Positions 2,542 to 57,600 of a stretch of DNA of 64,000 nt are shown here, in pieces. Origin of the DNA: Chiloscyllium plagiosum (taxonomy: Eukaryota); assembly GCF_004010195.1 (NCBI RefSeq), contig NC_057731.1:33826225-33890224 (forward strand). The letters are read 5' to 3'. A program made the position numbers and the translations under genes. How positions within the stretch are numbered: position 1 is the stretch's first letter; every line of letters starts with the position of its first letter. The notes under the pieces are model-generated. The model worked only from the letters and a program-made list of their open reading frames with translations, had not been told where the DNA came from and ran no database searches.

Positions 2542-2753
2542 AGGAGAAAGTGAGGACTGCAGATGCTGGAGATCAGAGCTTAAAAATGTGTTGCTGGAAA
2601 AGCGCAGCAGGTCAGGCAGCATCAAAGGCGCAGGAAAATCGACGTTTTGGGCATAAGCATTCCTGAAGAAGGGCTTATGCCCGAAACGTCGATTCTCTTG
2701 CTCCTTTGATGCTGCCTGACCTGCTGCGCTTTTCCAGCAACACATTTTTAAGC
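2542..2753. mobile_element. Palindromic PLE-derived mini-element with hammerhead motif
   Basis: Inverted arms; 14-bp TSD TATATTCCCTTACT (2528-2541 and 2754-2767). Confidence 0.85.
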
Positions 2754-3091: not shown

Positions 3092-3184
3092 GATGGAAAT
3101 GTGTTGCTGGAGAAGCGCAGCAGGTCAGGCAGCATCTAGGGAACAGGAGAATCGATGTTTCGGGCATTAGCCCTTCTTCAGGAA
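3092..3184 (-). mobile_element. Single-arm PLE terminal-repeat fragment
   Basis: Same repeat family (cattagccc variant), flanked by a tt(t/c)ccttact duplication. Confidence 0.8.
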
Positions 3185-3261
3185 TTCCCTTACTGTCAAT
3201 GTCCTCTGTCAGGCTGACTGTAACTCCCTGTGATGATGATAATAGAGTATTTTCCCTTACT

Positions 3262-3449
3262 GGAGAAAGTGAGGACTGCAGATGCTGGAGATCAGAGCTG
3301 AAAATGTGTTGCTGGAAAAGCGAAGCAGGTCAGGCAGCATCCAAGGAACAGCCCTTCCTGAAGAATGGCTTATGACCGAAACGTCGATTCTCCTGTTCCT
3401 TGGATACTGCCTGACCTGCTGCGCTTTTCCAGCAACACATTTTCAGCTC
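3262..3449. mobile_element. Palindromic PLE-derived mini-element
   Basis: Runs ggagaaagtgaggactgcag...cagctc; near-perfect TSD tat(t/a)ttcccttact. Confidence 0.85.
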
Positions 3450-4061
3450 TATATTCCCTTACTGTGAATGTCCTCTATCAGGCTGACTGTAACTCCCTGT
3501 GATGATGATTATAGAGTATATTCCCTTACTGTCAATGTCCTCAATCAGGCCGAGTGTAACTCCCTGTGATGATGATGATAATAGAGTATATTCCCTTACT
3601 GTCAATGTCCTCAATCAGGCTCACTGTAACTCCCTGTGATGATGATGATAATAGAGTATATTTTCTTACTGTCAATATCCTCAATCAGGCTGAGTGTAAC
3701 TCCCTGTGATGATGATAATAGAGTATATTCCCTTACTGTCAATATCCTCTATCAGGCTGACTGTAATTCCTGTGATGTTGATAATAGAGTATATTCCCTT
3801 ACTGTCAATGTCCTCTATCAGGCTTACTGTAACTCCCTGTGATGATGATAATAGAGTATATTCCCTTACTGTCAATGTCCTCTATCAGGCTGAGTGTAAC
3901 TCCCTGTGATGATGATAATAGAGTATATTCCCTTACTGTCAATGTCCTCAATCAGGCTCACTGTAACTCCCTGTGATGATGATGATAATAGAGTATATTC
4001 CCTTACTGTCAATGTCCTCTATCAGGCTGGCTGTTCCTGGCATGTAGTTCATCTTGCTCCT

Positions 4062-13200: not shown

Positions 13201-14679
13201 AGCAAAACCAGAATTCTGTTGCAAATGATTTGAACACAATATTTTCATGTATTACAAAATCTCTATTTCCTTGTTATTCCTCAAATGTCCACATGTATGT
13301 CAAATTTCTTGTTTAAATCAGTAGATTTCCCATTTAATGTAGCTGTGTTTTAACATACTCCCAATAACCACTGACATCAACTGTTCCTCCTTCCAGCAGA
13401 GCTAAAGATGCATTTCCTCTCTTCCTCTCTTCAAACTAATGACGATTATGCTAAATACAACTTTTCTTACAATGTACATTTTTATCTTAATCTCTAGTTT
13501 TTGTATGTTGGTTTAGGTAAAATCGAACATTCCTTCTTTAGAAGACTAACTTTCTTTAATGGTGTGTCTTTTCTTTAAGGAGAAAGTGAGGACTGCAGAT
13601 GCTGGAGATCAAAGTTGAAACTTTATTGCTGGAACAGCACAGCAGGTCAGGCAGCATCCAGGGAACAGGAGATTCGACGTTTCGGGCACAGGCCCTTCTT
13701 CAGGCCATTCCTGAAGAAGGGCCTGTGCCCGAAACGTCGAATCTCCTGTTCCCTGGATGCTGCCTGACCTGCTGTGCTGTTCCAGCAATAAAGTTTCAAC
13801 TGTCTTTTCTTTAAAACAGTTGTGTGAAGAAGAATGGTTTGATTTTACAGTATTAAATGTTATAGATTATTTTGGCAACATAGGCTGTTTCAGTGCTCCA
13901 AAGTTGCTGTAATTCAGTTTATAACTTGCTATCGGCAATACTAATCTGTAGTTCATGACATATTAAAGTTTAGTCAACAAGTTTACGCATAAGATTACCA
14001 ACAAAAGTAACAATCCAGTTGTCAGATCCTGGTACTAGGACAGAAATCCCGCATAATTAAAATGGAAGCTTACACTGCTTCCTCAATTTTCATTATTGGA
14101 GAAGTTATTTGGCTCCTGAAGAAGGGCTTATGCCCGAAACGTCGATTCTCCTGCTCCTCGGATGCTGCCTGGCCTGCTGTGTTTTTCCAGCAGCACATTT
14201 TTCAACTCTGGTACTCCAGCATCTGCAGTCCTCACTTTCTCCTTTTAATGTGATATCTTGATTGACATTGGCATTGGGGAATTGAAGCTATTTAACACAT
14301 GCTGTGTGTTGATACTATATTTTGTGCACGGTTATACTGTTTATTTGACTAATTTACATTCAGTTCCTTCCTCAATTGATCCAAAGTCAAAAGGGTGAAA
14401 TGGGATTGCAATTGTATTCACCATAATCAATATAAGACAACGGCTTTCAGTATATTACCAATGACCATTTCCAATAAATTTCTGAACTGCCTTGAGCTAT
14501 CTGCACTTACAAATTCCCATGTTTATACTGCACCCTGTAACTTAAATTTTAAAAGATTAAATAACTTTAATAGCAAACATGTGTTTCACTAAGTGTAATA
14601 AATTTGTTCATGATTTATTTTACAGATCAAGCCTTCCCCAAAAGGTTCTAAGGAATACTTTGCAAAGGTCAAGGAGTAG
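4266..14679 (+). CDS. PRDX3: Peroxiredoxin-3 (mitochondrial typical 2-Cys peroxiredoxin), 7 coding exons, ~247-250 aa
   Basis: Join 4266-4280(or 4289),4903-5029,6179-6320,8618-8753,9176-9279,12963-13128,14626-14679. All introns are GT-AG and phases are consistent. The product has an Arg/Ser-rich targeting peptide, then [30 protein letters not shown] (peroxidatic Cys), [12 protein letters not shown] (resolving Cys) and KEYF. Confidence 0.97.
4903..5029 (+). CDS. PRDX3: PRDX3 exon 2 (mitochondrial targeting peptide [17 protein letters not shown]...KCNFST)
   Basis: ttttgtag acceptor and A|gtaagt donor; 127 nt open frame, phase 0 to 1, with no acidic residues. Confidence 0.88.
6179..6320 (+). 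CDS. PRDX3: PRDX3 exon 3 ([47 protein letters not shown])
   Basis: ttccag acceptor and gtaagt donor; 142 nt; classic Prx N-terminal motif. Confidence 0.97.
8618..8753 (+). CDS. PRDX3: PRDX3 exon 4 ([45 protein letters not shown])
   Basis: tttgcag acceptor and AAG|gtatgg donor; 136 nt; contains the peroxidatic Cys. Confidence 0.98.
9176..9279 (+). CDS. PRDX3: PRDX3 exon 5 ([35 protein letters not shown])
   Basis: ttcag acceptor and AG|gtaaga donor; 104 nt; GGLG motif. Confidence 0.97.
9447..9690 (+). mobile_element. HE1/V-SINE-like SINE (5'-truncated) in PRDX3 intron 5
   Basis: V-domain-like ggagtttgcacattcttccc...ggtttcctcccaca with a CR1-like 3' tail. Confidence 0.8.
12963..13128 (+). CDS. 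PRDX3: PRDX3 exon 6 ([55 protein letters not shown])
   Basis: tttccag acceptor and ACG|gtttgt donor; 166 nt; contains the resolving Cys. Confidence 0.97.
13579..13800. mobile_element. Palindromic PLE-derived mini-element in PRDX3 intron 6
   Basis: ~90-bp near-perfect inverted arms; 14-bp TSD TGTCTTTTCTTTAA (13565-13578 and 13801-13814). Confidence 0.88.
13707..13742 (+). ncRNA. Minimal type I hammerhead ribozyme motif (representative copy)
   Basis: ATTC-CTGAAGA-A-GGGC-CTGT-GCCC-GAAA-CG-TC|GAAT. Stem I is ATTC/GAAT, the core is CUGANGA/GAAA, stem II is GGGC/GCCC, and palindromic ACGT replaces stem III. Activity is untested. Confidence 0.7.
14114..14242 (+). mobile_element. Single-arm PLE terminal repeat with hammerhead motif (core at 14116-14143)
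   Basis: cctgaagaagggcttatgcccgaaacgtcgattctcc...ctcactttctcc. Confidence 0.82.
14626..14679 (+). CDS. PRDX3: PRDX3 exon 7 ([17 protein letters not shown])
   Basis: tttacag acceptor; YF motif; TAG stop at 14677-14679. Confidence 0.95.
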   Translation: MKPSPKGSKEYFAKVKE

Positions 14680-18710: not shown

Positions 18711-20486
18711 AGTATTGACTTTCATAAATCTGGGGAATTCATGGAAAAAAATTGTGGAGGTATTGAGCAAAATTAACATGAGTTTGTGAAAAAGAAGCCA
18801 TGTTTAACTTATTAGAATGAGATTGAGGGTAGTAGTATGTTGAATTCAATTCCCCAGAAAACAGGAGTGTTTGGGTTATTGAACTTATTCAAGACAACTC
18901 TGGTATTTTCTTCATAGACACTGGTTATGGGGGTGATCGGGCAATTGCAGTTGAAAACACCAGATTAGTTAAGAACTAATTAAATCACAGCACAGTCTTG
19001 AAGAATCAATTAGCCTAATTCCACTTGTAAATTCTATGTTCGTGTGGAGAGGTGGATTTACCTTGTGAAATGTAAAACAGACAAAGATCATCAAGGCAAC
19101 ATTAACACAATGCAGTGAATTGTGGTAATGCTTTTGCATGTTCACTGTGGGTGTGTTGACTTCGTAGAGAATAGCCTGAAATGAAAATGCAAATAAAGTA
19201 ATGAACTGTGAACAAAAACAGTGCTGGAGAAACATAGCAGGTCTGGTAGCATCCAAAGAAAGAAAATAATGCTTACATTTCAAATTTAGTGACCTTTCAT
19301 TAGAAAGAAAATACAAACTAAAATTGGCTTCTCATTTCTCCATCAGCACATTTTCCCTACCTTCCTAATCGGTAATTTAAAGCATTTCATCTTCTAATGT
19401 GCAGTTTTTAATCTGCTATAGATTAAAAATGAAGTAGAAAATGGCAGAGATGTACACAAATATGGTTGTGATGACATGCCTGCATGTAACTGCATTATAT
19501 GTAATGGATCCTTTTAAGAATGCCATTGAAACTTGAATCTAATCTTGATAGCTACTGTCCAACTAGTCAAACTGTGCATGTGCACCAAAATTGGTGTTCA
19601 AGAGTCTGAGGACTTGCATAAGTGATGTCTAGCCCATTTTCTCCATTATTATCTTTCTATATAATTCAAATCAAGGTGCAGCTTTCCTGTTCTGAACTCA
19701 CCAACTGATTTTCCACTCTTGACAAGAAACATATGCGTATATTTTCCTTGTAATAGTTACGCATGTGCCACACCTGTGCTAATGGAATCTCAATTAACTA
19801 TTTTACTTGGCTTTGTCCAACCCTTCCTTGGACCAAAATGTTAGATTTCCCTAATCTCATTGGTATAATTAGAAACCAGTCTTGTTGATTATGGCTGAAA
19901 TTTGTTTATCTGAAATTTTCATTTTAATGGGGCTCTCTTAGCTTTTGGAATTTAGAGAAAGAACCTGATAATATTTTGTGATAACTCATCTTGTCACCAG
20001 TTGCATTAAAACAAATGAAAAGCAATGGTCGGAATCACTTAAAAATGTTTTTTTAATGACTGAAGTCTGATTTGTGGAGGGGGTCAATCCTATTGAAACT
20101 TCAGCCTTTGCCAACATAGCAAATACTTCATTAAATTTCTCATCTTTATGTGTCTGCTCTTAAATATTTAACACACTGTTTTCTATCTTGTTTACAATTA
20201 TATTAAAATATTGTGTTTCTCCTCCATAAAGTATACAAAATTAAATCTTTTTCTAAACTTTCTATTAATGATCTTTGAACCCCTTTATTCCTTGATGATA
20301 CTTTTAACAATGGGGAATTTACCAATTGGGTATTGTTTGGCCCTAGCAAGCTGTGTATTAACCCCAATTTATTTTATCAGAATAGTCAAATTCCTAGCTT
20401 GGACTCAGGTATACAGAGTGACAGATACTTTTAAAAGAATACAGCCACTTGGGATTTCTACACCAGGTTTCTCTAAAAGTATACCT

Positions 20487-20912
20487 GCAGGTTGAGTTGG
20501 TAGTTAGGAAGGCAAATACAGTGTTCCCATTCATCTTGAGAGTATTAAAATATAAAAGCAGGAATGTACCTCTGAGGCTTCATAAGTATTGTGAGCAATT
20601 TTGGGCCGCATACCTCAGGAAAGATGTATTGGCTCTGAGGCAGGTCCAGGGGAGGTTCATGAGAATAATCCCAGGAATGAAAGGCTTTATGTATGAGGAA
20701 CGTTTGAGGACTCTGGGGCTATACTTGGATTATAGAAGGATGAGAGGGGATCTGACTGAAATTTACAGAGTACTGAATGGCCTGGACAGAGTGGATTTTG
20801 GGAAGATGTTTCCATTGGCAGAGAGATGAGGTCCCGAGGGCACAACCTTAGAATAAAGAAATTTTAGAACAGAGATAAGGAGGAACTTCTTCACCAGGGA
20901 GTGGTGAAGCTG
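20487..20912 (+). mobile_element. CR1-clade LINE fragment
   Basis: YCEQFWAAYLRKD...YEERLRTLGLY...RGDLTEIY. Confidence 0.8.
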
Positions 20913-25195: not shown

Positions 25196-26284
25196 GATAC
25201 AGAACTGGCTCAAAGGTTGAAGACAGAGGGTGGTGCTGGAGGGTTGTTTTTCATACTGGAGATCTATGACTAGTGGAGGGCCACAAGGACCAGTGCTGGG
25301 TCCACTACTTTTCGTTATTTATATAAATGATTTGATTGTGAGCATAAGAGGTATAGTTAGTAAGTTTGCTAATGACACCAAAACTGGAGGTATAGTGGAC
25401 AGTGAAGAAGATTACTTCAGATTACAACAGGATCTTGATCAGATGGGACAATGGGCTGAGAAGTGGCAGGTGGAGTTTAATTCAGATAAATGTGAGGTGC
25501 TGCATTTTGAGAAAGCAAATCTTAGCAGGACTTATACACTTAATGTTAAGGTCCTAAGGAGTGTTGCGGAACAAAGAGACCTTGGAGTGCAGGTTCATAG
25601 TTTCTTGAAAGTGGAGTCACAGGTAGCTAGGATAGTGAAGAAGGCATTTGGTATGCTTTCCTTTATTGGTCAGAGTATTGAGTACAGGAGTTGGGAGGTC
25701 ATGTTGCAGCTGTACAGGACACTGGTTAGGCCACTGTTGGAATATTGCATGTAATTCTGGTCTTTTTCCTATCGGAAAGATGTTGTGAAACTTGAAAAGG
25801 TTCCGAAAAGATTTATAGGATATTGCCAGGGTTGGAGGATTTGAGCTATAGGGAGAGGCTGAACAGGCTGGGGCTGTTTTCCCTGGAGTGCCGGAGGCTG
25901 AGGGGTGACCTTATAGAGGTTTACAAAATTATGAGGGGCATGGATAGGGTAAATCGACAAAGTCTTTTCCCTGGATTGGGGGAGTCCAGAACCAAAGGGC
26001 ATAGGTTTAGTGTGAGAGGGGAAAGATATAAAAGAGACCTAAGGGGCAACGTTTTCACGCAGAGGCTGGTATGTATATGGAATGAGCTGCCAGAGGAAGT
26101 GGTGGAGGCTAGTAAAATTGCAACATTTAAAAGCCATCTGGACAGGTATATGAATAGGAAGGGTTTGGAGGGATATGGGGTGGGTGCTGGCAGATGGGAC
26201 TAGATTGGTTTGGGATATCTGGTTGGCATGGACGGGTTGGAACGAATGGGTCTGTTTCCGTGCTGTACATCTTTATGACTCTAT
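25196..26284 (+). mobile_element. CR1-clade LINE (HER1-like), RT to 3' end
   Basis: SGGPQGPVLGPLLFVIYINDL...SKFANDTK RT motifs with an in-frame stop; 3' tail present. Confidence 0.93.
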
Positions 26285-28934: not shown

Positions 28935-29902
28935 GCAATCCAATAGTAATCCACAGCTACCTGGGCTACAACTTCTCCCTCCCCCGTAAAAATGCTATCC
29001 CTTACTCCCAATTCCTCTGCCTCCATTACATTTGCTCCCAGACGGACCAATTCCACTCTAGCACATCCCAGATGGTCTCCTACTTCAAAGACCATAATTT
29101 CACCTCCCACATGGTCAACAATGCTGTCCAGCGCATCTCCTCCACTTCCTGCACCTCTGCCCTTGGACCCCACTCCTCCAACAACAACAAGGACATAAGA
29201 GGTGTAAATTCTGCGCCAATATCTCCCCACTCACCTCCATCCAATACCCCAAAGGATCCTTCCACATCTGACAGAGATTTTTCTGCACATCCAAACATCT
29301 CACCGACCATGCCCGTTGCTCTCGATGTGGTCTCCTCTACTCTGGGGAGACAGGATGCTGAATTGTGGAACATTTCTGAGACACACGTGCCATCAATCCC
29401 ACTGGCCTGTGGTTGACCACTTCAACTCCCACTCTCACTCTGCCAAGGGTGTGCAAGTCCTGGGCCTCCCCCACCACCAAACCCTAGCCACCCAACGCCT
29501 GGAGGAAGAAGACCTCATATTCTGCCTTGGGACCCTCCAACCACATGGGATCAATTTCAATTTCACCAGTTTCCTCATCTCCCCTCCCCCCACCTTATCC
29601 CAGATCCAACCCTCCAACTCGACACCACCCTCTTGAACTGTCCTACCGCACACCTTCATTCCCACCTATCTGCTCCACCCTCAACTCTGACCTATCACCA
29701 TCATTCCCCATCTGCATCTACCTATTGCATTCCCAACTATTTTTCCCCAGCCCCACCCCCCCATCCGTTTATCTCTCAGCACCCTTGGCTCCCCTCCACC
29801 TCCCACCACATTCCTGATGAAGAGCTCATGCTCGAAACATCATCTCTCCTGCTCCTTTGGATGCTGCCTGACTGGATGTGCTTTTCCAGCACCACAACGT
29901 TT
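28935..29902 (+). mobile_element. Degenerate PLE 3' fragment nested in a SINE
   Basis: Remnants such as MVSYFKDHNF, HFNSHSHS and RLEEEDLIFCLGTLQPHGIN. Terminal repeat has CTGATGA-A-GAGC-TCAT-GCTC-GAAA (29814-29837). 16-bp TSD GACTAGTAATCCTCAG (28919-28934 and 29903-29918). Confidence 0.85.
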
Positions 29903-30278
29903 GACTAGTAATCCTCAGAGCTATATTCTGGGGACATAGAAGCATTGAAACTAGTAGCAAACGCTCTGCCATTTAATATGGTTGTGGCTGATCCTGTATC
30001 AAATCCTACCATGGCAGATAACAAAATTTGAATTCAATAAAAATCTGGTATTAAAAGGCTAACCTAATGGCAACCATTACAACGTTGTCGATTGTTGTAA
30101 GTATTCATCTGGTAAACTAATCTTCTTTAGGAATAGAACTTTGCCATTCTTACTCGATCTGGTTGACATATGACTCCATACCCACAAACAATGTTAACTG
30201 CCCTCTGAAATGGCTTAGCAAGCCACTCAGTTCAATGCCAATTAGAACTGGGAAATAAATGTTGGCCATGCAGTGACA

Positions 30279-30500
30279 GAGTCGAGAGTGTGGTGCTGGA
30301 AAAGCATAGCCTGTCAGACAGCATCCGAGGAACAGGAGAATCGGCATTTTGGGCATAAGCCCTTTATCAGGATTTCTGATGATGGGCTTATGCCCAAAAC
30401 ATCAATTCTCTTGCTGCTCGGATGCTGACTGACAGGTTGTGCTTTTCGAGCACCACACTCTTGACTCTGATCTCCAGCATCTGCAGTCCTCACTTTCTCC
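30279..30500. mobile_element. Palindromic PLE-derived mini-element (older copy)
   Basis: Inverted arms of the same terminal repeat with a decayed hammerhead core. Confidence 0.8.
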
Positions 30501-36643: not shown

Positions 36644-39600
36644 GTAAGTTCCACTATTAAATACATACTGATTAGTATCTCAGGAATAAGCGTGCACCAT
36701 GAATTACGTGTTCAGTGGTGTGAACATGCTCAGCTGAGTCTTGCAGCTGTGAACGATATAGTGGTTCGAAGATTACGTGAGCTGAACTGGATAGTCACTC
36801 AGAAAATATGAGTCAGGAAAGCATTAAAATTCAACCTATATTGTCCAGTTTTCAAATGCTCCAGGGAAACACTGCTTACTGCACAGGCTGATTCACCATG
36901 ATGAACCATCCTTTAACACCTCAAATAGCTGCTGGTGAAAAGAGGTCTTGGTTAGTTGCCTCTGCGCCCACAAATGATTGATTCATGGGAGAACCTTGAA
37001 AACAAATAGAGACTTTTCAAATACTTGATAAAAACCAATTAAGGAAAAGGTTTGCATGAGCAAGTAGCTATAATGATTGAACTTTAAATAATTTTGTTTT
37101 ACATTTTATAAGTAGGGTTGGGTATGGAATGAACTGCCAGAGGAAGTGGTGGAGGGTGGAAAATTACAAAATTTAAAAGGCATCTGGATGGGTCTATGAA
37201 TAGGAAGGGTTTGGAGAGATATGGGACAAATGCTGGCAAGTGAGACTAGATTTACTGAGGATATCTGGTTGGCATGGACGGGTTGGATCGAAGGATCTGT
37301 TTCCATGCTGTACATCTCTATGACTCTATGACTCTTTAAGGGGTGAATTAAATTCACAATTCTGTAACTTTTGGATGAAAAGAATGATTTTTTACATTAG
37401 AAAAACGGTGGGCCAGTGACCCCAGACTGGTTGATCATGATGTTGAGACAATTATCACAAGACCTGGTACACAAATGAGACTGCAAATTGATGAGGTAAG
37501 AAATTTAGAGCTGTAGAATTAAATATTATGCATTTTTAATGTGCTGCGTTTGCATTCTCAATTTGGTGTATATATAAATTAGAGGCAATAGCAAATAAAA
37601 AATTTGAAGCTAAGGCATAATCATTGCATGGTTTGAATTTTGCTTAAAAATGAATGATTGCACCAAGTTTAGAAAATTGTCTTGTGCCTATCACCTATCA
37701 AATACAGGAATAGGTGTTACAAAAGGGAATATGTTTGGTCAGCATGGTATTGGTCGGTGGATCTAGCAAATGGAGCCGAGATTCATTTCATGGGATCCTC
37801 ATGTACGTAACACAATTGATTCATAAAACATAATTCAGTGAATCCATCATTTAAATATCTGACTGAAAAATGTTCTTAAATTTGGGATCTCAGAAGCATA
37901 AATCCTTATTGTCTGCATTTCAGTTAAGGATCTCAGGCACATAAATGGCATCATTATACTCCTTTTTACACATGAGCTGAAATCAACAGAAAACATATTA
38001 ATTATATGTTTCCTGCTGATTTTAATGATTCTCTGTGTTCAAATAGAATAGAAATAATTGTTTTACTAAGTTAAACTGATTACATATTCGTAATAGATTA
38101 ATGTTTTGAGCTTTTGATGCATTTTAGAATTTATGTAACAATGCAGGGATGAAATGTGATGTAATAGGTTCTTTTAAAATATTCATTCCACTCCTTGGCT
38201 TTTTTCTTAATCAGGACAAAGTGAGGACTGCAGATGCTGGAGATCAGAGTCACGAGTATGCTGCTGGAAAAGCACGGCAGGTCAGACAGCTTCCGAGGAG
38301 CAGGAAAATCGATGTTTCGGACATATTCTTGAAGAAGGGCTTATGCCCGAAACATCGATTCTCCTGCTCCTCGGATGCTGCCTGACCTGCTGTGCTTTTC
38401 TACCACCACACTCTCGACTTTTTTTCTTAATCAGAATCCTAGGACAGATGTTCTGTTTAATAATGTACTTACTTTATTGTGCCCTTACTCCTACTCCATT
38501 TAATCACCTTTCTTTCCACAAAATCTGGATCAGCCCTACAGTTGGTCGATCTAATCCCAGCTATTGAAAGAAAAGAGATCGATGGCTCAGGTATTGACAG
38601 GCCAACACTTTCCTTTTTTAATTTTAGATTTTGAGCTTTTTCACATTCACTTCTATGAGGACTCATTGAAAATCAATCAAGAACAGGGACTCTGACTAAT
38701 TTCCATCTCCTTTGCAGCTTAATATCACTAGAGCTAAAAGCAGCATTTGTACAACTGCCTCAACAGAGATTGGGACAAATCGAGAATTGAACCCATGTTG
38801 TACCTTTATACTTCAGTACCATGTCATATTGTGCGTTAAATACATAGGTCGGCAGGACAGCAGATGCCTCTTCTGTGAATAGTGGAGTTTGGATCTTTTC
38901 ATTTTAGTGCTAGCAATAAGAGGCTGTGTGGAACACAGATCTCTGCTGTTCTTACCTAACAATGCAATGGTCTAGCTATCTTAGGGCACTCCAACAGGTT
39001 GTAAAATATTAAAGATATTCTGATAGCAAGTGGGTTTAACTGACAGGCATCTTTACTGTTAAAAACCACACTGACATTCTGGAAATAGCATAAGTATTCA
39101 GATTCCACCTTTGTAGATTAATTAATAGTTAGACTGATTCAGCCCAGATCAAGTAGTGGTGTATTATTGAGGTCAGAGTACCAACTATATTATCTATAAT
39201 AAAAGGAGTAGCCATGGGCACCCGCATGGGCCCCAGCTATGCCTGCCTCTTCGTAGGATATGTGGAACAGTCCATCTTCCGCAGCTACACTGACAGCACC
39301 CCCCACCTTTTCCTCCGCTACATCAATGACTGTATCGGCGCTGCCTCTTGCTCCCACGAGGAGGTTGAACAATTCATCTATTTTACCAACACCTTCCATC
39401 CCGACCTCAAATTCACCTGGACCGTCTCAGACTCCTCCCTCCCCTTCCTAGACCTTTCCATTTCTATCTCAGGCGACCGAATCAACACGGACATTTACTA
39501 TAAACCGACCGACTCCCACAGCTACCTAGACTACACCTCCTCCCACCCTGCCCCCAGTAAAACCGGCATCCCATATTCCCAATTCCTTTGTCTCCGCCGC

Positions 39601-42600
39601 ATCTGCTCCCAGGAGGACCAGTTCCAAAACCGTACAACCCAGATGGCCTCCTTCTTCAAGGACNNNNNNNNNNNNNNNNNNNNNNNNNNNNNNNNNNNNN
39701 NNNNNNNNNNNNNNNNNNNNNNNNNNNNNNNNNNNNNNNNNNNNNNNNNNNNNNNNNNNNNNNNNNNNNNNNNNNNNNNNNNNNNNNNNNNNNNNNNNNN
39801 NNNNNNNNNNNNNNNNNNNNNNNNNNNNNNNNNNNNNNNNNNNNNNNNNNNNNNNNNNNNNNNNNNNNNNNNNNNNNNNNNNNNNNNNNNNNNNNNNNNN
39901 NNNNNNNNNNNNNNNNNNNNNNNNNNNNNNNNNNNNNNNNNNNNNNNNNNNNNNNNNNNNNNNNNNNNNNNNNNNNNNNNNNNNNNNNNNNNNNNNNNNN
40001 NNNNNNNNNNNNNNNNNNNNNNNNNNNNNNNNNNNNNNNNNNNNNNNNNNNNNNNNNNNNNNNNNNNNNNNNNNNNNNNNNNNNNNNNNNNNNNNNNNNN
40101 NNNNNNNNNNNNNNNNNNNNNNNNNNNNNNNNNNNNNNNNNNNNNNNNNNNNNNNNNNNNNNNNNNNNNNNNNNNNNNNNNNNNNNNNNNNNNNNNNNNN
40201 NNNNNNNNNNNNNNNNNNNNNNNNNNNNNNNNNNNNNNNNNNNNNNNNNNNNNNNNNNNNNNNNNNNNNNNNNNNNNNNNNNNNCACCTATCGCATTTCC
40301 AAAGCCCCTCCCCAAGTCCCTCCTCCCTACCTTTTATCTTAGCCTGCTGGACACACTTTCCTCATTCCTGAAGAAGGGCTTATGCCCGAAACGTCGATTC
40401 TCCTGTTCCTTGGATGCTGCCTGACCTGCTGCGCTTTTCCAGCAACACATTTTCAGCTCTGATCTCCAGCATCTGCAGTCCTCACTTTCTCCTATAATAA
40501 GAATAGATTTGTTAATTATTCTTGATTGTGTAAGCAAAAATCAATTAGATAAACCTGGTCACAGTGAGACAATTTGTTGCATCTTGTTTTCAACGTATTT
40601 GATAGTGGAACAAATGTTCAATTTTTCAGGCCTCAGTTATAGCTTAGAAAATGCAAACAACATTTTGAAGATTACTGACAAATCAATAAAATATAAAAAC
40701 CATAAACTGCATGACTTCACACAAGGGATATGTATTGAATGGATTACAAGAACGCAAATTAAGAACACAGGTTCTGGACTCTAATTTCATTTTGGAGCAG
40801 CTTGTGTAATTAAAATAGTATAATTGCTGATTGCTTGTACTTCTTTGAATCTGTGAAATTACATTCTTTTAATTAGCTTTTTGCTATAGACCAAATGCTG
40901 TATTCTGATAATGCAGTGTTTTCTGATCTCCAGACTTGACAGTATGCAAAGTGAGTTTCAGTGCTTAACACTGCTTAGTTTTGCATCACACTATTTCATG
41001 AATGTGGAAATTTCAGATCATATTTATTGTGATCTTACAGAGTTGCCTTTCTCTGAAAACACAAGTGAAGAATGTCTGAAGAAAGCATGAATTGTAATTA
41101 TATGTTGACATGGGGCATTTTGTGGATCTAATGATTTCTCCTTATTGGTTTTCCAGCTTCAATATCTTCTACATGAAAAGCTTAGATCTGGTGGATTCTA
41201 CATTCTAAAACAGCTTTTCCAGGCGCATGACCCTACTGGTAGAGGTCATGTGACAAGGTGAAGCACAAGTCTTTTTCTTGACTGAAGCGTTTTAAATTTA
41301 AGCAAGCATTAATGTGGGTTAGTTTTAACAGTTTAAATCAGATTGTGTTTCATATAACTGAAGGTGCATTTTGTGTTACTTCATTGTTAGTATGGAGCTC
41401 ATTGGCTGAGAACTTGTGTAATAAAATCAGATGTTGAGATCAGCTTGCCTAATATATCTACTGCCTTTCAGAGGAAAGAAATTTGCCAGATTTCTGGTAA
41501 TAACCAGCATGAACTTCAACCCAACTTTCAGTTTTGAAATGGACGTGGCCAATTTATTGAAAATAATAAAGTATTTATTGAGTTAACACAAATTAATGTA
41601 AATAAAATATACTATATGCAGTGTTTGAATAAGTGCAAGTATTACACCTCATTGGGTATATCAAGCCCTGCTTTTTTGGTACCATCACAAATGCTAAAGA
41701 TTTTATAAAAGTATATGCAATTCCCCGAGTTCCTGGCTTTTAGATCCAGATTGACAGAAAACATGGACTAGGTCTCTTCAATTAACAAGAATTACTAATT
41801 ATTGAAAATAAATGGATTCTGGCTAAAGAGAAACAATTGGCATATACCTTTGCCAGTTAAAATTTAACTCCCCTTATAAAGCTACCCCCTACACATACAG
41901 ACAGACACAACAGAAAATGGGAAAATGAGATTCCCAATGAAGGGTTTTTGCCTGAAATGTCGAATCTCCTGCTCCTCAAATGCTGCTGAAACTACTGTGC
42001 TTTTCCAGCACCACACTCTTGACAACAGAAAATGGGTAACGGTGGAGGGAAAGACTGGGAGACTGGTTATGACGTCTATCCACTGGGTTCACTGAGATGA
42101 TCCTCTTAACTTGTAAGGACCTGCCACTCCCCAATCTTCCTTCCTCACGTGCTTTCATTTGCTTGCAGGAGGCACAGGATGACTGGCTCACGTTTATCAA
42201 CTCTCTAACTTATTGGTTAAAAAGCTAAGCTTGCAGCTACCATTAGGGTGGAATATACAGGCTTTCTTCAGATTCGTGGGTTCTTTTCACTCCAGAGAGA
42301 GAGAGAGAGAGACAGCTCCTCCCTTTTTGGAAGCCTGATGGTTTCGGCACAAACATTTATGCCCATAAGCTTCTCAGTTACCTGGGAACCAAATCATATA
42401 GTCGTTGACAGGGGGATGGCCTTTGTCATCGACAGAGGTCACTATTCCACAGACCACTCAGTTACTTGCTGCTGGCCTCCCTTCAACCAACCCCAACCCC
42501 CATATCTGATCCAGTTTGTCTATAGTAACTCCACTGCTTGAACAAATAGTTGTGTAAACAGTACCTGCAAAGAGTGCCAAGTTACCTACTTTTTAAAAAA

Positions 42601-48600: not shown

Positions 48601-51600
48601 ACACTAAAGTAATGTTCAATATTTTTTCTGACCAGTATTGTTCAACATTTGCCTAATTACAGACTTAAACTTAATGCAAAGTCCATCATTACATTTGAAA
48701 ACTTTTATTCACACTTCAAAGAACAAGAACCAAAGGGGTATCCAGCTTGGATGGATCCTGTAAAAAGGCCCCAGGAAAACAAAAGAATGAGTGCAACACA
48801 AGTTCACATACAATTGAAAGCAATGGTTCGGGAAAGGTAATATCAATGTTTTTATAAAAATGTGAAGAAACAGTTTTTTTATTGTTTGCTTTAAACTTGA
48901 AAAGTATCTTTCTCTCTGTTTCCTTAAATGAAAAAAAAGTTATGCCTCATTAATGATAAGCTCTACTTGTGGTGTTCTCAGCTTTTAATAGACAGTGGGA
49001 TATTTATTTGGTGGGTGTTACTGACATGCCTAGTAAGTGGTAAGACTGTGTATGATTTTGCCACTGTTCAATAGGGTCTCTCATAGAAATATTGACACAA
49101 AATGATGAAATGACACAGCAAAATGTTGTAGGGTACTGGACTCAGGGTATGTGAAATCCTTAGGAGCTTAACACTGGTATTTGTCGATTTACATTTTCTC
49201 ATACGTGAATGTTTTATGCCTATACCTTTTGTATTCTTTAATTTGTTCATGGATTGTGCTAGCATGGTTGGTCGTTGTTCCCATCCCTAACTGTTCTTGA
49301 AAAGTTGGTGGTGAGCAGCCTTATGGGATTGTTTTAATATATCTGATATATGTACACCTACCATGCTGTTGCTAAACACTTTCAGGATTTAGACCCAGTG
49401 GGAGTGAGGGTGTTGGTGATATATTTTCAAGTCAAAATACTGTGGTATGGAAGGAAACTTGAAAATGGTGGCATTTTCTTGCGCCTATTGCTCTTATTCT
49501 TCTAGATGGTCAAAATTGTTTGTTTGGAAAGTACTTTCAAAGAAGCCTTGGCACCCAATGCTGCCAGTGTACAGCAACGTGAATGTTGAAGGTGGATGGG
49601 TACCGATCAGTGAGATGCATTGTTAAACATTGTGTTGAGCTTCTTGAGTGTTGCTTAAGCTACACTCATCCGAACTAGTGAAGAACATTCCACCATGTTC
49701 CTGAGTTATACCTTGTAAATAGTGGACAGGCTTGGGTTGTCAGGAAATCAGTTACTTGCTGCAAAATGTGAAGTCTCTAACCTGTTCTTATAGCCACAGT
49801 ATGCCTATGATTAATCCAGTCACGTTTCTGATAAATGGCAATTTCTAGGATGTTGACTGTGGGGATTCGACAGTGTTAATGCCTTTGAAAATCAACCAGA
49901 AATGGTTAGATTTTCTCTTGCTGGAAATGGTCATTTCTGACACTAATGTAGCACAAATGTTACTTGTCACTTAGCCCAAGACTGATTGTTGTTGAGGTCT
50001 TGCTGCAGACTGGCACAAACTCTTTCAGCGTCAGTAGAGTTGTGAATGCTACAGAACATCCCCATTTGTGACTAGCTGGTGGTGGGAAATCATTGATGAA
50101 GCAGCTGAAAGTGGTTAGATCTTAGACACTACCCTGAGGGACTCCTGAAATATTACCCTGGTGCTGAAATAGTTGGCCCTCCAACAACCACAGCTCTCTT
50201 CTTTTATTCTAAGTATGACTCCAGCCCATGGAGAGTTTTGCCCTTGATAGATCTTCTGGTAAATCTTTCTAGATCGTTTTGATATACTTGGCCCTGTGTT
50301 GCCTTGTTGTGAAGGACCATCATTCTCAACACATTAGCATTTCTGCAAAAGCTGCTAGATGTAAAGAATCACTTAAGTTCAGTGTTTGAAGGTTATTAGA
50401 TTTTATTTGATTGAAATAACACAGGAGTAGTTTGAGATCAACAAAAATAAAACAACACAAGTCCAGAGCATGTGGCGATATTCTAGTCTGAGGCTTGGTA
50501 GTCATTTCTCATAATATGATCATTAAACAGGGTTTATAAGATACATGCGCAAGTGACTAATGTTGAGAAATGCAAAGAATATTTTTCATGGTGCACTGTG
50601 ATAAACCAATATAGTTTAAACAGTGGATTAAAAAAAATCCTGTAATGAAAGGAGATTATTTGCAGTCAATTTAAACTGAAATGACACTAAATAGGGGCAG
50701 ATGTTGCACCTTGAATAATTCCTGTTTATTTCTTTCATTGTCCTCATGCCCACCTGCATTTCTGAAACTCAGAGGTTGATGCCATCTTTAAGGCCACTAT
50801 CATTCAAGGCTATGGGCCTAATGCAGAAAAGTGGGAGTGGTGTTGGTCGCAGTTTATTTTTGGTGGTACAGAATTGATGAGCCAAAAGGACTCTTCTGCA
50901 GTCTGTGATTCTATATCAGTGTCAGCAATTTGCTGATTGTTAGGATATTTGTAATGGGAGAAAGTGAGGTCTGCAGATGCTGGAGATCAGAGATGGAAAT
51001 GTGTTGCTGGAAAAGCAGGCAGCATCTAGGGAACAGGAGAATCGACGTTTCGGGCATTAGCCCTTCTTCAGGAATTCCTGCAATGCCCCAAGCTACCAAT
51101 AGTCCCCTGGTCCTGAATTCCCAACCTATCGTAAGCCCTCACCTATACTTGACAACCAAATCCCTAACCATCTAGCACCTGCATCCCCTCACTACCTGGC
51201 CTACTTTCCTGAAGAAGGGCTAATGCCCGAAACGTCGATTCTCCTGTTCCCTAGATGCTGCCTGACCTGCTGCGCTTTTCCAGCAACACATTTCCATATT
51301 TGTAATGGGGCCATGCAACCATTCCCCATCTGATGAAGCAGGTCTCTAGAAACCAAATTGCACCTCAGAATGTGTAAATATATAAATCTGCCTAACACAC
51401 GATTTTGTCTTATTTCCAGACCACTGGAACTGAGAGATCTTTTTATAAAAGTGGATAACGGTAGAATGCTTCCAGTCACATTTCAAAATGTTTTGCATCA
51501 ACTAGGAATTGAAATGGAACAAGAAGAATTCATAAAACTGTTGGAAAGGTACTATTAATAACTGCAATATTAGTAATGCAGTGATTTGTAGCAAATGGTT

Positions 51601-54600
51601 TGATGGCATGCAAGACTTGTATGATTAAAACACACAAAAAATCTGATTTTCGAAGGCTTATAACGCTTTTCTGAAGCAAGTGGCATTTTGGGGCAAGTGT
51701 TAAAACGCTTAAAATGAACACGTTCATATGTCCATTATGTGGTTAATAAATCTTGTGATCTGGTTGGAATCCCCATTTCCGAACAAAAATAGACTAAAGG
51801 TTGCCCACTTTACTTTGGTGGAACTTATCATGTGAACATCTAGGACATTTCCAGCTGAAGCAGCATACATGGGGTCAATAATACACACAACCAGCAGTGG
51901 AGTAGATCAGTGCTGAAACCACACACCCTTTTTCCAGTAGTAGGTGCAGTATTCAGTGGCTTAAAAGTCCTGTAGCCACTTTGACAGCTGAGAGAAGGAC
52001 AGTGTGTCTAGTAAGGGAGAGGGTTGAATGGCAGGTGGATGTGCTGCAAGGTGCCAATGGGGGGAGGAATAGGATGCCATGTGAGTTAAAGGAAGAGTGT
52101 CAGGGAGGAGTAAAGAGTGAGAGGGTTACAGATGGCAGATGGATGGAGATGTACAGGTTTGAAACTTTATTGCTGGAACAGCACAGCAGGTCAGGCAGCA
52201 TCCAGGGAACAGGAGATTCGACGTTTCGGGCACAGGCCCTTCTTCAGGAATGTTTCCTGAAGAAGGGCCTGTGCCCGAAACGTCGAATCTCCTGTTCCCT
52301 GGATGCTGCCTGACCTGCTGTGCTGTTCCAGCAATAAAGTTTCAACTTTGATCTCCAGCATCTGCAGACCTCACTTTCTCCTCGGAGATGTACAGGTGCC
52401 AGGTAGTGAGGGGATGCAGGTGCTAGATGGTTAGGGATTTGGTTGTCAAGTATAGGTGAGGGCTTACGATAGGTTGGGAATTCAGGTCCAGGGGACTATT
52501 GGTAGCTTGGGGCATTGCAGGGATTATGGAAGGTATAGGATAGTACGGTGAGTAATCGGATATGTAGGGGTTGGGTCAGCAAATGCCTGCATCAGAGACA
52601 TTGAGTCTAGGCAAGCAATGGGATAGGATGTGAATTGGGGATGTGTACATCAAGACCATGGAGTGGAGGTGGGGAGTTGAGGGTCAGGATGTGTGTTGTA
52701 TTATGGGGTGGTTAAAGGTTACGTCGAGCTGGGGAGTCAAGGAAGGGGGAGCATCAATCAGAGATTGGGGGTTAGGGAGTTGCTGGGATGTTGAGATGAG
52801 GGTCAGTTTTCTAATTATCAGCAGTTACAGCAGGTTTTTAATTCCATAATTTGTCCTTGCTAACTATTTAGCTAAGTGAGTTAGAACCATCCAAAACCTC
52901 TGAATCTACCTCGGAGTTGGAGACATTTTCAGGGGGCTATAGACTCTGTGCAATTGTCCATTGTAAAGTTGGGTCGATTCAGCTGTGTTAGGATCTTTGC
53001 TTGGTCCTGACACGTAAATCTCATCTATGCTGCTACAGTGACTACTTCTCCATAAATGGTTCTGGGTCAAAATGTTTGAATCCTATTTTTAAAATATTAA
53101 AACTTTAAGAGATCGCAAACCTCAGGGGCAAAGTTAGATAGCACCTGAAAACCTGAGATAATGATACAGGATTAACCTGTGCTCGTTTATTCTGCTGCTT
53201 GATGTTTTCATTCAGCCAGCATTAAGGTGCTGTTGAGTGAACAAAACAGTGAGATGCTCACACGAGTTCATGCTAAACTGCAAGAGTTAAAATCAACTTG
53301 TACCTCTTAAGAGGAAGGCATGTTGTTCTGAAAATTAGCTTGACCTGGTAAACATAGACAAATAGCACAACTTAGTGGAGAGTAGACTCCAAGTTTCTCT
53401 GATGTAGCACTGGAGACCATGGTGCAGGAGATAATAATAAGGAGAGAGATTCTTTAAGCACAGGAGACCTTTTGGACAGATACTGTAAAGGCAGCCAACT
53501 GTCATGGTCAATGCCTGTGGTATAGGATTGGAAGCAGGTGCCACAAAACATTCAATGGCATCCCACATTGCTCAAGGTTTATAAATGTATCCACATGCCA
53601 TATCCTTAAACCTGAACCATAAGCTCAGTTCCCTACACTCTGTCCATTCAATCTCTGTAAGTCATCACTTATGCCTCACCATCATCTTGCCCTCAAACCC
53701 TGGACTCTGAGAGCCTCTCAGTTTGCACACAATGCTACCTTTTCAAAACCATTCAACCATATCATTACTATCATACCTCACCCAGTGATGCACTGTCTTC
53801 TTCCCTGCATTACAAGATGGTGCAATACTGGAGGCAGCAGCAATTCACCATCATTGAACCAGCCATGTCTGAGGCTGTGGCCAGCAGCGGTGTTGAGAAA
53901 ATTGAAGATAATGATCTAAACCATCTTTTTAAATCTCACATCCTTAAAGTGTGTGATTTAAGGATATACTTGCTACATCCTTGCACATGCAACTTTATCA
54001 TTGTGCCTTTCTTCTTTCAGATAGCCGAGAACCTGGCTAGTCAGAGGTATAGGAGCAAGCAATTAAAGAGGAAATGTGGAATAATGATGAAGAAACAGAA
54101 TTACTTACTTTTCAGAATAGTTTGGAGGAGGGATGTGCATATGCTGAAATACTTAGTAACCTGCAGTTAGGAGAGGGGAAACCAGTTATCCAGATGTTAG
54201 CTTACAGATGGATCTGCTGCAGAGGACTCAGATGAGGGATGGAATACAGGAAAGGCTGATGGGAGTGCACAGTGAAATAGTTGGTACATCTCAAATACAG
54301 AAAACCTGTGGTCAATGTCAAGCATTTGGAGGAGTCATATTGTCATAGAGATCTACAGCATCATTTCCATGTTAGTCAAAAACAATCACCTAACTCTTCT
54401 AATTCCATTTTCCAGCAGTTGGCCCATAGCCTTGTCTAGATTAGAATGGTGCTGGAAAAGCACAGCAGGTCAGGCAGTATCCGAGGAGTCGGAAAATTGA
54501 CGTTTCAGGCAAAAGAAGGCCTTTAGCCCAAAATGTCGATTTTCCTGCTCCTCGGATGCTGCCTGACCTGCTGTGCTTTTCCAGCACCACTCTAATCTAG

Positions 54601-57600
54601 ACTCTGATTTCCAGTATCTGCAATACTCACTTTTGCCATAGCCTTTTCTGTCTTGGCATCACAAGTGCACATGTAAATGCTTCTTCAATATTATGAGGGT
54701 TTCTGCCTCTACCAACATTACAGGCAGTGAGTTCCAGATTCCTACCACCCTCTGGGTGAAAACAATTTCTCCTCACATCTCTTTGGAAACCTTCTGCCTC
54801 TTCTCTAAAATCTATGCCCCCAGTTTTGGATTACTTCATCAAGAGGAAAAGTTTCTTCCTGTCTATAAACCTCATAATTTTATAATCATCCCCCATCATG
54901 TCCCTTCTCAGTCTCTGAAGGTGAGGTGTGGAAATGTTGGTGAATAGGGAATTCAGTTTGTGTTCACTGGGACTGCAGTTGGACGAGCTGATCATGAACA
55001 CTTTGATCAGAAAAGGACAAGATTGGTTGCTTATCTTTCTCCTCTTCCTCCTCCTCTTCCACTTCTCATCTGGTTGCTGTACACTCCAGTGGCAAGGGCA
55101 GTGCCTTCATGATAGAGCAGACAAATTGTGACATATTCCACCAAGCATTGGTACACTGCATCAGAACAGTCCAGGCTGAATGTTGGCTTCACTGCAAAGA
55201 GGTTTTATTAAGATCTTCTTTGCAGCGATGGAAATATTGTAGTGAGATCCATTTTAACTCTTGGAGAGAAGTGGTGTGAGTACATATATTTCTGGTGCAC
55301 TACAAGCCAGGTTCACTAAATGCTTAGAAAAAGTGGATGCTTGTCCCTGTTCTCTGAATGCAACCAGAGCTAGAATGTTCTCCAAGGAAAGAAAGAATTC
55401 CAACAGCAGACAGTATAAATAAGGTAATGTTTTGCTGAAACCAACATTCCAACAATGGTCTCCAATCATTAGCTGTGATATAAGTACAGTTTTACAGATT
55501 CCAGGATATTTAATTGGTCAGTTGGTAGCATTAGTTAATGTACATTAGGTGTCCACAATAATTTTGGAATGTTTTAAGAGTAAAAAGCATATTCATTAAA
55601 AAATTGTGATAATGCAGGAGATAGGTGATATGATACAAGATTCAGCAAAGCCATTAACCTTGTAGTTAACGTATGGTCAGGGTTTCTTTTTCAGGAGCAG
55701 CCCCAGTGTAGATGATACACTTTGCAAATGGCTTTTCAATGCAAGGAACAACACATTGGAGAGGTCTTGTCACCATTCGGTATTATTCTTTCACAATGAG
55801 AATACGTCTTACATATTACATTAAATAGCTTAAGTATTTAAGTCATTATTTCTTGAAAAGAAAACAAGTCCTCCCCATTACAGTGATATAGAACTCGACT
55901 TTCTAGACTTTGATTTTGATTACTCATTATTCCCTTTCCATGCTAAACTTTTTCTGAGTTTTATTATCCTTTATCATCTCCATTTCCAGGTATGACCCAG
56001 ATGATCTTGGAATCGTTAAAGCTGGCAGTTTAATGAGGGCTTTGGGTTTCCAAACAACAGGTGAGAACAGAGCAGGATGGGGAGCAGTTCCATCAGCACT
56101 TGGCAAATCGACCAGATTCAGATTGCCAGAAGATCAACCAAGTATGTCTGGGTGCTTCCTTTATTCTTCATGGAGCTACAGGGTTGATTTTAACCATTAA
56201 GCTGTTGACTGGCTGTTCCATAGTGCCAGTAGGATGTCCAGTATATTTTTATGGTCAGGCCTTGCTGACATATTTGTAGTGAGCTGCAAGCAGCACATGG
56301 GTGTTGCGAGGCAGATTTCAAGCTCCAGGTTAGGAAAAAGTGAGGTTCATGGAGAGTTGGGACTAGGGAGTCCAGGGAGGCTGAAGCCCACATTATTCTT
56401 TCTCCTCATGGCCTCATCAGTATAATGCCACTTCTATTTTATTCTGAATTAGTGTCCATTGCTCAGCAGGCAGTAAAACCAGCACTGGGGTCCTACTTAT
56501 GGCATAGGGCCCTGATTTTCTTACTAAACCTCGGTTCTCCTGGTAGATGGGGGTGTCTTATTGCTAATTGGGATATGGGCCAATGGGCTGAAGAGTGCCA
56601 GATGGAGTTTAATTTAGATAAATGCAAGGTGCTGCATTTTGGAAAGGCAAATCAGAGCAGGACTTATACACTTAATGGTAAGGTCCTGGGGAGTGTGCCT
56701 GAACAAAGAGATCTTGGAGTGCAGGTTCATAGTTCCTTGAAAGTGGAATCGCAGGTCGATAGGATAGTGGAGAAGGCTTTTGGTATGCTTTACTTTATTG
56801 GTCAGAGCATTGAATATAGGAGTAGGGAGGTCATGTTGAAGCTGTACAAGACATTGGTTGGGCCATTTTTCGAATATTGTGTGCAATTCTGGTCTTCCAT
56901 CTATCTGAAGGATGTTTTGAAACTTGACAGGGCTCAGAAAAGATTTACAAGGATGTTATCAGGATTGGAGGATTTGAGTTACAGGGAGAGGCTGAACAGG
57001 CTGGGGCTGCTTTCCCTGGAACAACGGAGGCTGAGGGGTGACCTTAAAAAGGTGTATAAAATCATAAGGGGCATGGATAGGGTAAATAGTTATGGTAAAT
57101 AGGGTAAATCCATCTTTTCCCTGGGGGGGGGGGAGTCCAGAACCAGAGGGGTAGGTTTACGGTGAGAGGGGAAAAATCTAAAGGAGACCTAAGGGTCAAT
57201 CTTTTCATGCAGAGAATGGTAGTGTGTGGAATGAGCTGCCAGAGGAAGTGGTAGAGACTGGTACCAATGCAACATTTAAAATGCATCTGGATGGCTATAT
57301 GATTAGGAAGGGTTTAAAGGGATATGGGCCAAGTACTGGCAAATGGGACTACATTGGGTTAGGATATCTGGTCGGCATAGACAAAATAGACCAAAGGTTC
57401 TGTTTCGTGCTTTATATCTCTACGACACTATGACTCTATATATGTGAGTACCCAGCCAGGTAGAGGGAGACAACATATCCCTTAAATGAGAATTAGATGT
57501 AATAAAAATAAAATGCATGTTAATCAATCACATTAAAGTGCCTGAAGCTGTAACAAATCTTTGGCTTTGAATGTGTAAGAACGTGTATGTGAACCTGAGG

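Follow-up and report, generated by a model that had tools for sequence, protein, structure and literature searches.

Endonuclease-bearing (EN+) Penelope-like elements (PLEs) are defined by a CCHH motif with two cysteines between the GIY and the YIG of the nuclease, and a CX2-5CxxC linker motif is common to the Neptune and Nematis types (PMC8557442; statements about the literature refer throughout to the accessible parts of each source). The literature already describes inverted pseudo-long terminal repeats (pLTRs) that carry a tail on one side, solo pLTRs, and PLE hammerheads. The minimal PLE hammerhead has a CUGANGA core, an extra base between positions 9 and 10.1, a G10.1-C11.1 pair, and a palindromic stem III, and opposite-strand hammerhead pairs 100 to 700 bp apart are mentioned in Schistosoma (PMC4209133); initiator (Inr)-like motifs are described in PLE repeats (PMC3846280, PMC2377424). 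In vitro, Poseidon_Ac nicks and extends both strands, with two reverse transcriptase (RT) start sites that bound the tail, a modeled dimer, and unprocessed RNA as template (PMC11167929). The origin of PLE inverted repeats and tails and the role of the hammerhead are stated as open (PMC8557442, PMC11167929, PMC4209133). Here, we analyze a 64,000-nt stretch of the Chiloscyllium plagiosum genome (NC_057731.1, positions 33,826,225 to 33,890,224; hereafter, the window) around a short palindrome of PLE terminal repeats at 13579 to 13800, and we offer base-level in vivo statistics on such insertions: two fixed priming sites, one per strand, a predicted one-base transcription start, and no sign of cleaved templates.

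Palindromic insertions and their parent element

We consider it likely that these palindromes are dead by-products of a Neptune-type PLE and that each was built afresh where it landed out of two short cDNAs, which probably had their primers on the two cut strands and probably ran off capped, uncleaved RNA. The insertion at 13579, 222 bp long, is a palindrome in which two copies of a 130-bp terminal repeat stand head to head. The repeat belongs to a Neptune-type Penelope element (RT plus GIY-YIG), and perfect 14-bp target-site duplications (TSDs) flank the insertion; coordinates are collected in Table 1, with element positions counted from the predicted hammerhead cut site. Its left arm is the reverse complement of a repeat ending in a 34-bp tail and its right arm is the tailless repeat; the arms match at 97%, the match beginning at 13613, and both carry CTGAAGA-A-GGGC-CTGT-GCCC-GAAA-CG-TC. 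An earlier note on this DNA had proposed a ribozyme on both strands, with a cut after C13738. The cores and the predicted cut site are where it placed them, but function is unlikely: a transcript across 13579 to 13801 folds as a long hairpin at -200.9 kcal/mol, against -143 kcal/mol with the hammerhead forced. Because this hairpin beats any hammerhead-containing fold by 58 kcal/mol, ribozymes within palindromes are predicted to be inactive, masked in any transcript.

The parent element can be read from related copies. The RT fragment in the window is 88 to 97% identical to PLE copies that score for RVT_1 and GIY-YIG; in two related copies (L169 and L170), RVT_1 is above its cutoff and GIY-YIG, with an E value of 3e-4, lies 1 bit below its own. 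Copies related to the window fragment have one open reading frame (ORF) containing an RT, then a CX4CxxC linker (CNRRRCNTC in L161, L169, and L170), and then a C-terminal GIY-YIG; two cysteines lie between GIY and YIG (IIYCIRCSRCGLLYIG), with histidines later, which makes up the CCHH motif. A terminal repeat with a hammerhead, an optional tail of 30 to 40 bp, and inverted 5' copies, as in EN+ PLEs, are also found. By the motif definitions of PMC8557442, its sequence places the parent among EN+ PLEs of the Neptune or Nematis type, and the PLE origin that the earlier note gave to the repeats is borne out. Pfam searches with four window fragments alone returned zero matches, as did a PDB search with the L161 sequence.

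Walking 5' through natural copies led to one (L250) whose repeat starts at -31 against unrelated DNA and continues through the hammerhead and tail at least 640 bp into the beginning of the ORF, with no 3' untranslated region (UTR) upstream. The element order is repeat, ORF, 3' UTR, repeat: the 130-bp repeat spans -32 to +98, runs into the ORF, whose first in-frame ATG follows the cut site by about 135 nt, and is present again at the 3' end, so that what had been called a mini-element is this repeat itself. The junction from tail to ORF is kept in 976 copies genome-wide. Most of the 28 examined (L269 to L298) are short composites in which a piece of the ORF start is followed by a second terminal repeat, which suggests template jumps. 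Upstream of the RT, the ORF contains a 36-bp Pro/Thr/Ser minisatellite (L187, L214, and L232 to L244; C15:4034396-4036248 of the assembly), which elsewhere is expanded into an array with a 72-bp period.

In the assembly searched (G000, 3.56 Gb), the exact hammerhead core occurs 103,653 times and the reversed control pattern 0 times, so the pattern is not due to chance; 8,896 head-to-head pairs of intact cores lie 0 to 30 nt apart. In an unselected 1.4 Mb from seven contigs, there are 46 palindrome pairs (2 of them doubtful), or about 31 per Mb, and extrapolation from 44 in 1.4 Mb gives a genome total of about 100,000 near-perfect 200-bp hairpins, which may be a large source of double-stranded RNA in host transcripts. 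The copies in the window are real. With 10 exact cores, the window has about five times the mean density of the genome, which is 29 per Mb. All eight palindromes that the note listed are present, along with five nonpalindromic copies of the repeat (3094, 14114, 29315-29910, 39202-40492, and 41930). Two of its generalizations fail: the core is retained on each arm in only four of the eight (13579, 30279 with substitutions, 50957, and 52159), and TSDs range from 7 to 17 bp rather than from 10 to 16 bp.

Probable formation at the insertion site

Two origins had been suggested for the palindromes, a non-autonomous ribozyme-bearing retroelement and a stereotyped abortive insertion product, along with a comparison of palindrome centers as a means of telling them apart. 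That comparison speaks for de novo formation at each insertion, and hence for the second origin and against the first. The 50 centers listed, of 8,896, are mostly unique and often have templated inserts. In the window, the 50957 insertion has a center that matches, at 98% and in inverted orientation, DNA lying 1.2 kb away. Among the 50, two centers recur, AATGATT/AATCATT (5 copies) and AAT/ATT (9 copies), but at the 20 loci fetched for recurrent centers, the first spans two loop subfamilies and the second five, and both occur with both tail polarities. Likewise, the two commonest microhomology joins recur in the TTAT, TAAT, and CTGT subfamilies, and no center inherited within a clade, as expected of a mobilized palindrome, was found. 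Arms within one insertion are discordant at 25 of 350 diagnostic sites (7%), compared with 37% between insertions and 2.8% at constant sites. Because centers vary, recurrent ones cross subfamilies and polarities, and one was copied locally, the palindromes were likely made at the insertion site, mostly, to judge from their sequences, from one RNA variant.

It is very unlikely that the palindrome is instead a non-autonomous ribozyme-bearing element mobilized as a unit. The recurrence of some centers would fit such an element, as would the occurrence of inverted junctions among RNA reads (at the commonest join, 12 reads with 10 starts), the shortness of TAAT-loop copies in the sample, and the existence in this genome of a genuine non-autonomous derivative. 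Set against these are the centers themselves, most of them unique and the recurrent ones crossing subfamilies and polarities, the masking of the ribozyme by the hairpin, and the fact that the mobilized derivative is head to tail, not palindromic.

This derivative, which lies outside the window, is a 224-bp unit of the CTGT subfamily that spans about -50 to +176 and has a single fixed junction, represented by 40 matches at about 38 loci on 27 contigs; tandems are seen in L277 to L281 (C1:16163062 and C1:26522054). Non-LTR retrozymes are small, coding-free, PLE-derived, and arranged in head-to-tail tandems with a type I hammerhead (bioRxiv 10.64898/2026.07.22.740005), and the 224-bp unit likewise has tandem hammerhead units with one junction at many loci; from its sequence, it appears to be a small mobilized retrozyme-like family born from the PLE 5' end. 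The palindromes lack this head-to-tail arrangement: their pairs are head to head by the definition of the search, and their junction is not shared.

Arm ends, the -32 boundary, and the template

The outer ends of arms fall at two fixed sites, about +62 for tailless and about +98 for tailed arms. One arm of each kind is present in 50 of 53 pairs from an unselected 1.46-Mb sample (2 of the 53 are doubtful, one being a self-match and one a double count) and in 68 of 75 pairs over all loci, and unpaired copies of the sample divide 44:41. The tailless arm extends further 5' in 34 of 50 pairs and the tailed arm is longer in 16; since the tailless arm of the 34 has extra upstream template, neither arm is a subset of the other.

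These ends bear on the possibility that a single cDNA snaps back near its 3' end and copies itself, the endonuclease then resolving the hairpin at the tail boundary. Self-priming of this kind was reportedly proposed by Arkhipova in 2013, and tail formation by endonuclease resolution is said to come from Craig in 2021. We think this fold-back unlikely: in the 34 pairs in which the tailless arm has upstream template and the tailed arm has the tail, self-copying would need a later deletion, some arms differ at subfamily sites (L304, L310, and L314), 128 bp of local DNA lie between the arms at 50957, and the relative Poseidon_Ac extends both strands in vitro. In its favor, the commonest junctions are overlaps of 2 to 4 nt that a small hairpin could make, the arms are mostly of one variant with private changes in common (L301 and L305), 16 of 50 pairs have a longer tailed arm, and the model is a published one (PMC3846280, PMC8557442).

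The earlier note had the palindromes breaking at the ribozyme, but inner ends have no peak at the cut site: among 185 uncensored copies scoring at least 40 in the 1.46-Mb sample, 7 end at -2 to +2, 56 at -34 to -29, about 32 nt upstream, and 40 upstream of -34. This histogram excludes 71 of 273 anchor matches scoring under 40 and 18 gap-censored copies; self-matches of reference copies are present in the sample alignment, so the ends of long copies are rough. Genome-wide, CTGAAGA subfamilies have 12,883 starts at -32 and 14,252 at -31, both undercounted since the search pattern needs a leading non-C letter, against 34,917 copies passing -36; in the sample, copy loss per base upstream is about 1%. 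Among insertions running from repeat to ORF, L250 and six of 28 further ones (L275, L277/8, L279, L283, L292, and L293) start at -27 to -33, and, apart from four with upstream 3' UTR discussed below, the remainder are truncated or lie in gaps. Where one arm holds ORF sequence, the inverted arm extends beyond -37 in 7 of 11 insertions; where one arm is short, the other does so in only 2 of 49 pairs, a count biased by assembly gaps. Such correlated lengths fit priming of both arms in the same RNA repeat better than independent stalls.

At -32 there is, in addition, often an extra base. The template has C before A(-32), yet 23 of 45 rows with plain flanks, and 53 of all 100 listed, show G there, where the background is 0.24 (p about 1e-4). 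In the CTGATGA subfamilies, which serve as a replicate, flank rows have G:A at 22:17 (49:51 in all rows), where 0.36 to 0.40 is expected (p 0.03), and at the control position, -31, G is present in 5 of 20 flank rows (14 of 100 in all). The sequence at -32 resembles what we take to be the initiator consensus. An untemplated G at the full-length 5' ends of L1 and SVA has been read as cap copying (PMC4859970), and ends at -32 with an extra G suggest that the element copies capped RNA uncut by its ribozyme. Two other sources of this end were rejected: a spliced template, as copies from -32 have no upstream sequence in common, and hammerhead self-cleavage at -32, where stems I and III presumably cannot form. 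In single-cell poly(A) reads (run X20, about 2% of reads, whose species match to the assembly is unestablished), reads of both directions cover the repeat, at a depth about 100 times that of the ORF start; there is no pile-up of starts or ends at -32 or the cut site in these reads, from a library type that cannot map caps.

A pause of the RT where the hammerhead fold (or a dimer of the two repeats) has its 5' edge, on a longer or circular RNA that does not end at -32, seems to us a poor candidate for this boundary. The boundary does coincide with the 5' strand of stem I, centers in unrelated families likewise lie immediately 5' of the core, there are templates that reach further upstream and composites that begin again near -32, and a circular template, as modeled in PMC4209133, would also leave no peak at the cut site. 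On the other hand, 34,917 copies pass -36 and upstream loss is only about 1% per base, the RT would reach the 3' side of the fold first, and neither the -32-specific extra G nor the correlated arm lengths would be expected from independent stalls.

On the reading we favor, run-off synthesis from two primed strands, transcription would start at A(-32) to give a capped RNA, and the RT-endonuclease, predicted to be a dimer in an Anolis relative, would make a staggered cut 13 to 17 bp wide, with priming at +98 on one target strand and at +62 on the other. Both primings in the 5' repeat would yield two run-off cDNAs of 95 to 130 nt reaching the capped end at -32, which host end joining, of microhomology type, would trim and join head to head; priming in the 3' repeat would yield ordinary long copies with long inverted arms, and single priming alone would leave solo repeats. 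The PLE RT would leave the RNA intact for a second priming. In palindromes, the ribozyme would be a passenger, and the ends suggest that the hammerhead does not process the template. Evenly balanced, in our judgment, is a broader proposition: that the tens of thousands of mini-insertions are the footprint of an integration in which uncut capped RNA from -32 is copied from both strands to the cap by a two-site RT, that the hammerhead works against or apart from retrotransposition of this RNA, and that circles made by cleavage only feed a side product such as the 224-bp retrozyme.

Several observations weigh against run-off from a capped 5' end. Among 21 young pairs, there are 5 clean cases in which the tailless arm is longer by at least 4 nt and 2 of the reverse, in a polarity table of which 6 of the 21 rows were misread by ungapped alignment (other families or indels), and with 18 of 202 copies ending in assembly gaps, pairs of a short and a long arm are under-detected. 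Four of the 28 insertions running from repeat to ORF (L274, L284, L286, and L297) have 3' UTR upstream of the 5' repeat, which means that certain templates either begin at a more upstream point or are multimers or circles. About eight composites contain a fragment of the ORF start and then restart at -31 to -39, a pattern that a pause and jump in the 3' repeat would explain as well. In 7 of 50 pairs, the arms disagree at two diagnostic sites or more, so the two arms do not always stem from one RNA. The longer tailed arms cited above for fold-back count here as well. As for the extra G, it was counted by hand over the 100 rows listed first from one contig, with flanks classed by eye, the direct flank-only contrast of -32 with -31 gives a p of 0.06, and an RT that adds C at any template end would leave the same sign, which makes the cap a candidate.

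Hammerhead motifs and other features of the window

The motif is a minimal type I hammerhead with a palindromic ACGU stem III, as had been supposed. A generic scan of the 1.46 Mb gives 174 matches, 107 with a stem II of at least 4 bp, and three shuffles give 3 to 5 matches and 0 stems. Four families in the sample keep the core while their paired stems differ, with ACGU or AGCU as stem III, and within the family the loop varies while stem II is kept. The GAGC/GCTC change at 29814 pointed out in the earlier note is real: of 123 copies, 8 have A-U in place of G-C through changes on both sides, and 7 are changed on a single side. Probably this marks a single older subfamily and not a series of events. 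For the 44-mer monomer, the fold with stems I and II has the minimum free energy, and the dimer cofolds in a partly intermolecular form, not as a clean ACGU dimer. An Rfam scan of the window returned no hammerhead family, only subthreshold microRNA hairpin matches. At least three further hammerhead families with other stems, one with AGCU as stem III, are present (sample loci L001 to L140; in the window, near 30772 and 1092, counted on the minus strand), and two of them also form palindromes centered 5' of the core, in one case 20 of 68 among the matches listed.

Table 1. Positions of PLE-derived features in the window
Positions	Strand	Feature
2542..2753		Palindrome, tailed arm to -18, tailless to -33; inside a 62- to 66-bp minisatellite
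3094..3185	-	Solo tailless repeat from -32; at the same minisatellite site as the 2542 insertion
3262..3450		Palindrome, tailed arm to +7, tailless to -31; minisatellite site shared with 2542 and 3094
13565..13578		Left TSD of the 13579 insertion, 14 bp
13579..13612	-	34-bp PLE tail, on one arm only
13579..13704	-	Tailed arm, +98 to -29, CTGT-loop subfamily
13676..13703	-	Minimal type I hammerhead core, minus arm
13705		Single inserted base at inversion junction
13706..13800	+	Tailless arm, -33 to about +62; 4 nt of upstream template absent from tailed arm
13711..13738	+	Minimal type I hammerhead core, plus arm; predicted cut after 13738
13801..13814		Right TSD of the 13579 insertion, 14 bp, perfect
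14114..14242	+	Solo tailed repeat from -30
29315..29910	+	Older 5'-truncated PLE copy, stem II GAGC/GCTC, core at 29814
30277..30500		Diverged palindrome, tailless arm to -30, tailed to -32
38214..38421		Palindrome, tailed arm to -15, tailless to -32; 17-bp TSD with 1 mismatch
39202..40492	+	5'-truncated PLE: RT fragment, 621-N assembly gap, 3' UTR, hammerhead (40368), tail; 8-bp TSD
41930..42010	+	Diverged solo tailless repeat
50957..51296		Palindrome, TAAT subfamily, 13-bp TSD; 128-bp center (51073-51200) copies 52398-52525 in inverted orientation
52159..52383		Palindrome, tailless arm to -33, tailed to -31, CTGT subfamily; 98% like 13579, different center; 14-bp TSD
54434..54635		Palindrome, TTTT-loop subfamily, each core truncated (-17/-23); 10-bp TSD

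Between 2367 and 3500, three separate insertions of different variants (2542, 3094, and 3262) share one minisatellite site, which indicates a sequence preference of the endonuclease. The source of the templated center at 50957 begins exactly behind the TSD of the 52159 insertion, by chance or through a shared cut site. A short open frame on the plus strand at 41157 to 41258, ending at GT, may be a host exon, in which case the insertions in the window would be intronic. Decayed RT fragments at 20422-20829, 25221-26203, 46268-46738, 56344-57102, 60727-61095, and 62489-62938 look like what we take to be CR1 long interspersed nuclear elements.

Comparison with known systems

A literature search covering sources other than key subscription papers, repeat databases (Repbase/Dfam), and supplements returned neither an extra G or mapped capped start in PLEs nor short PLE palindromes made by twin priming. 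A biochemical parallel is Poseidon_Ac of Anolis carolinensis, in which two RT starts bound the tail, both strands are nicked and extended, unprocessed RNA is used, and no reads end at the cut site (PMC11167929). It belongs to another clade and its ORF begins inside the hammerhead, unlike the shark element, whose ATG follows the cut site at a distance, and the accessible text of PMC11167929 reports no capped start and no short palindromes.

In architecture, the insertions resemble the inverted-pLTR units of EN+ PLEs (Pen2a_Av of Adineta vaga, PMC3846280; scheme in PMC8557442; Drosophila virilis Penelope, PMC2377424), with which they have in common head-to-head repeats, a palindromic junction, a TSD, a one-ended tail of 30 to 40 bp, solo pLTRs, and Inr-like sequence. 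They differ in that the coding-free form is very abundant here and both arms stop at one base position and, unlike in the self-priming model for Pen2a_Av, their junctions argue for two primings. In L1 twin priming, the two segments cover different parts of the RNA. The likeness to L1 lies in an inversion from two primers at a staggered cut and in the extra G of full-length L1 and SVA 5' ends (PMC4859970), but both arms here copy the same 95 nt, from fixed internal sites and without poly(A).

The motif shares its core, the extra base, the G10.1-C11.1 pair, and the palindromic stem III with the minimal dimer-type hammerheads of metazoan PLEs (PMC4209133; reviewed in PMC6765202), but stem II has 4 bp instead of 7 or 8, and within palindromes the motif is predicted to be buried in a hairpin. 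Compared with non-LTR retrozymes as described in the accessible text of the bioRxiv report cited above, the palindromes are head to head and have no common junction, whereas the 224-bp tandem unit fits the definition. The palindromes are not a new class of element. Their architecture is known, and the insertions themselves are real and abundant.

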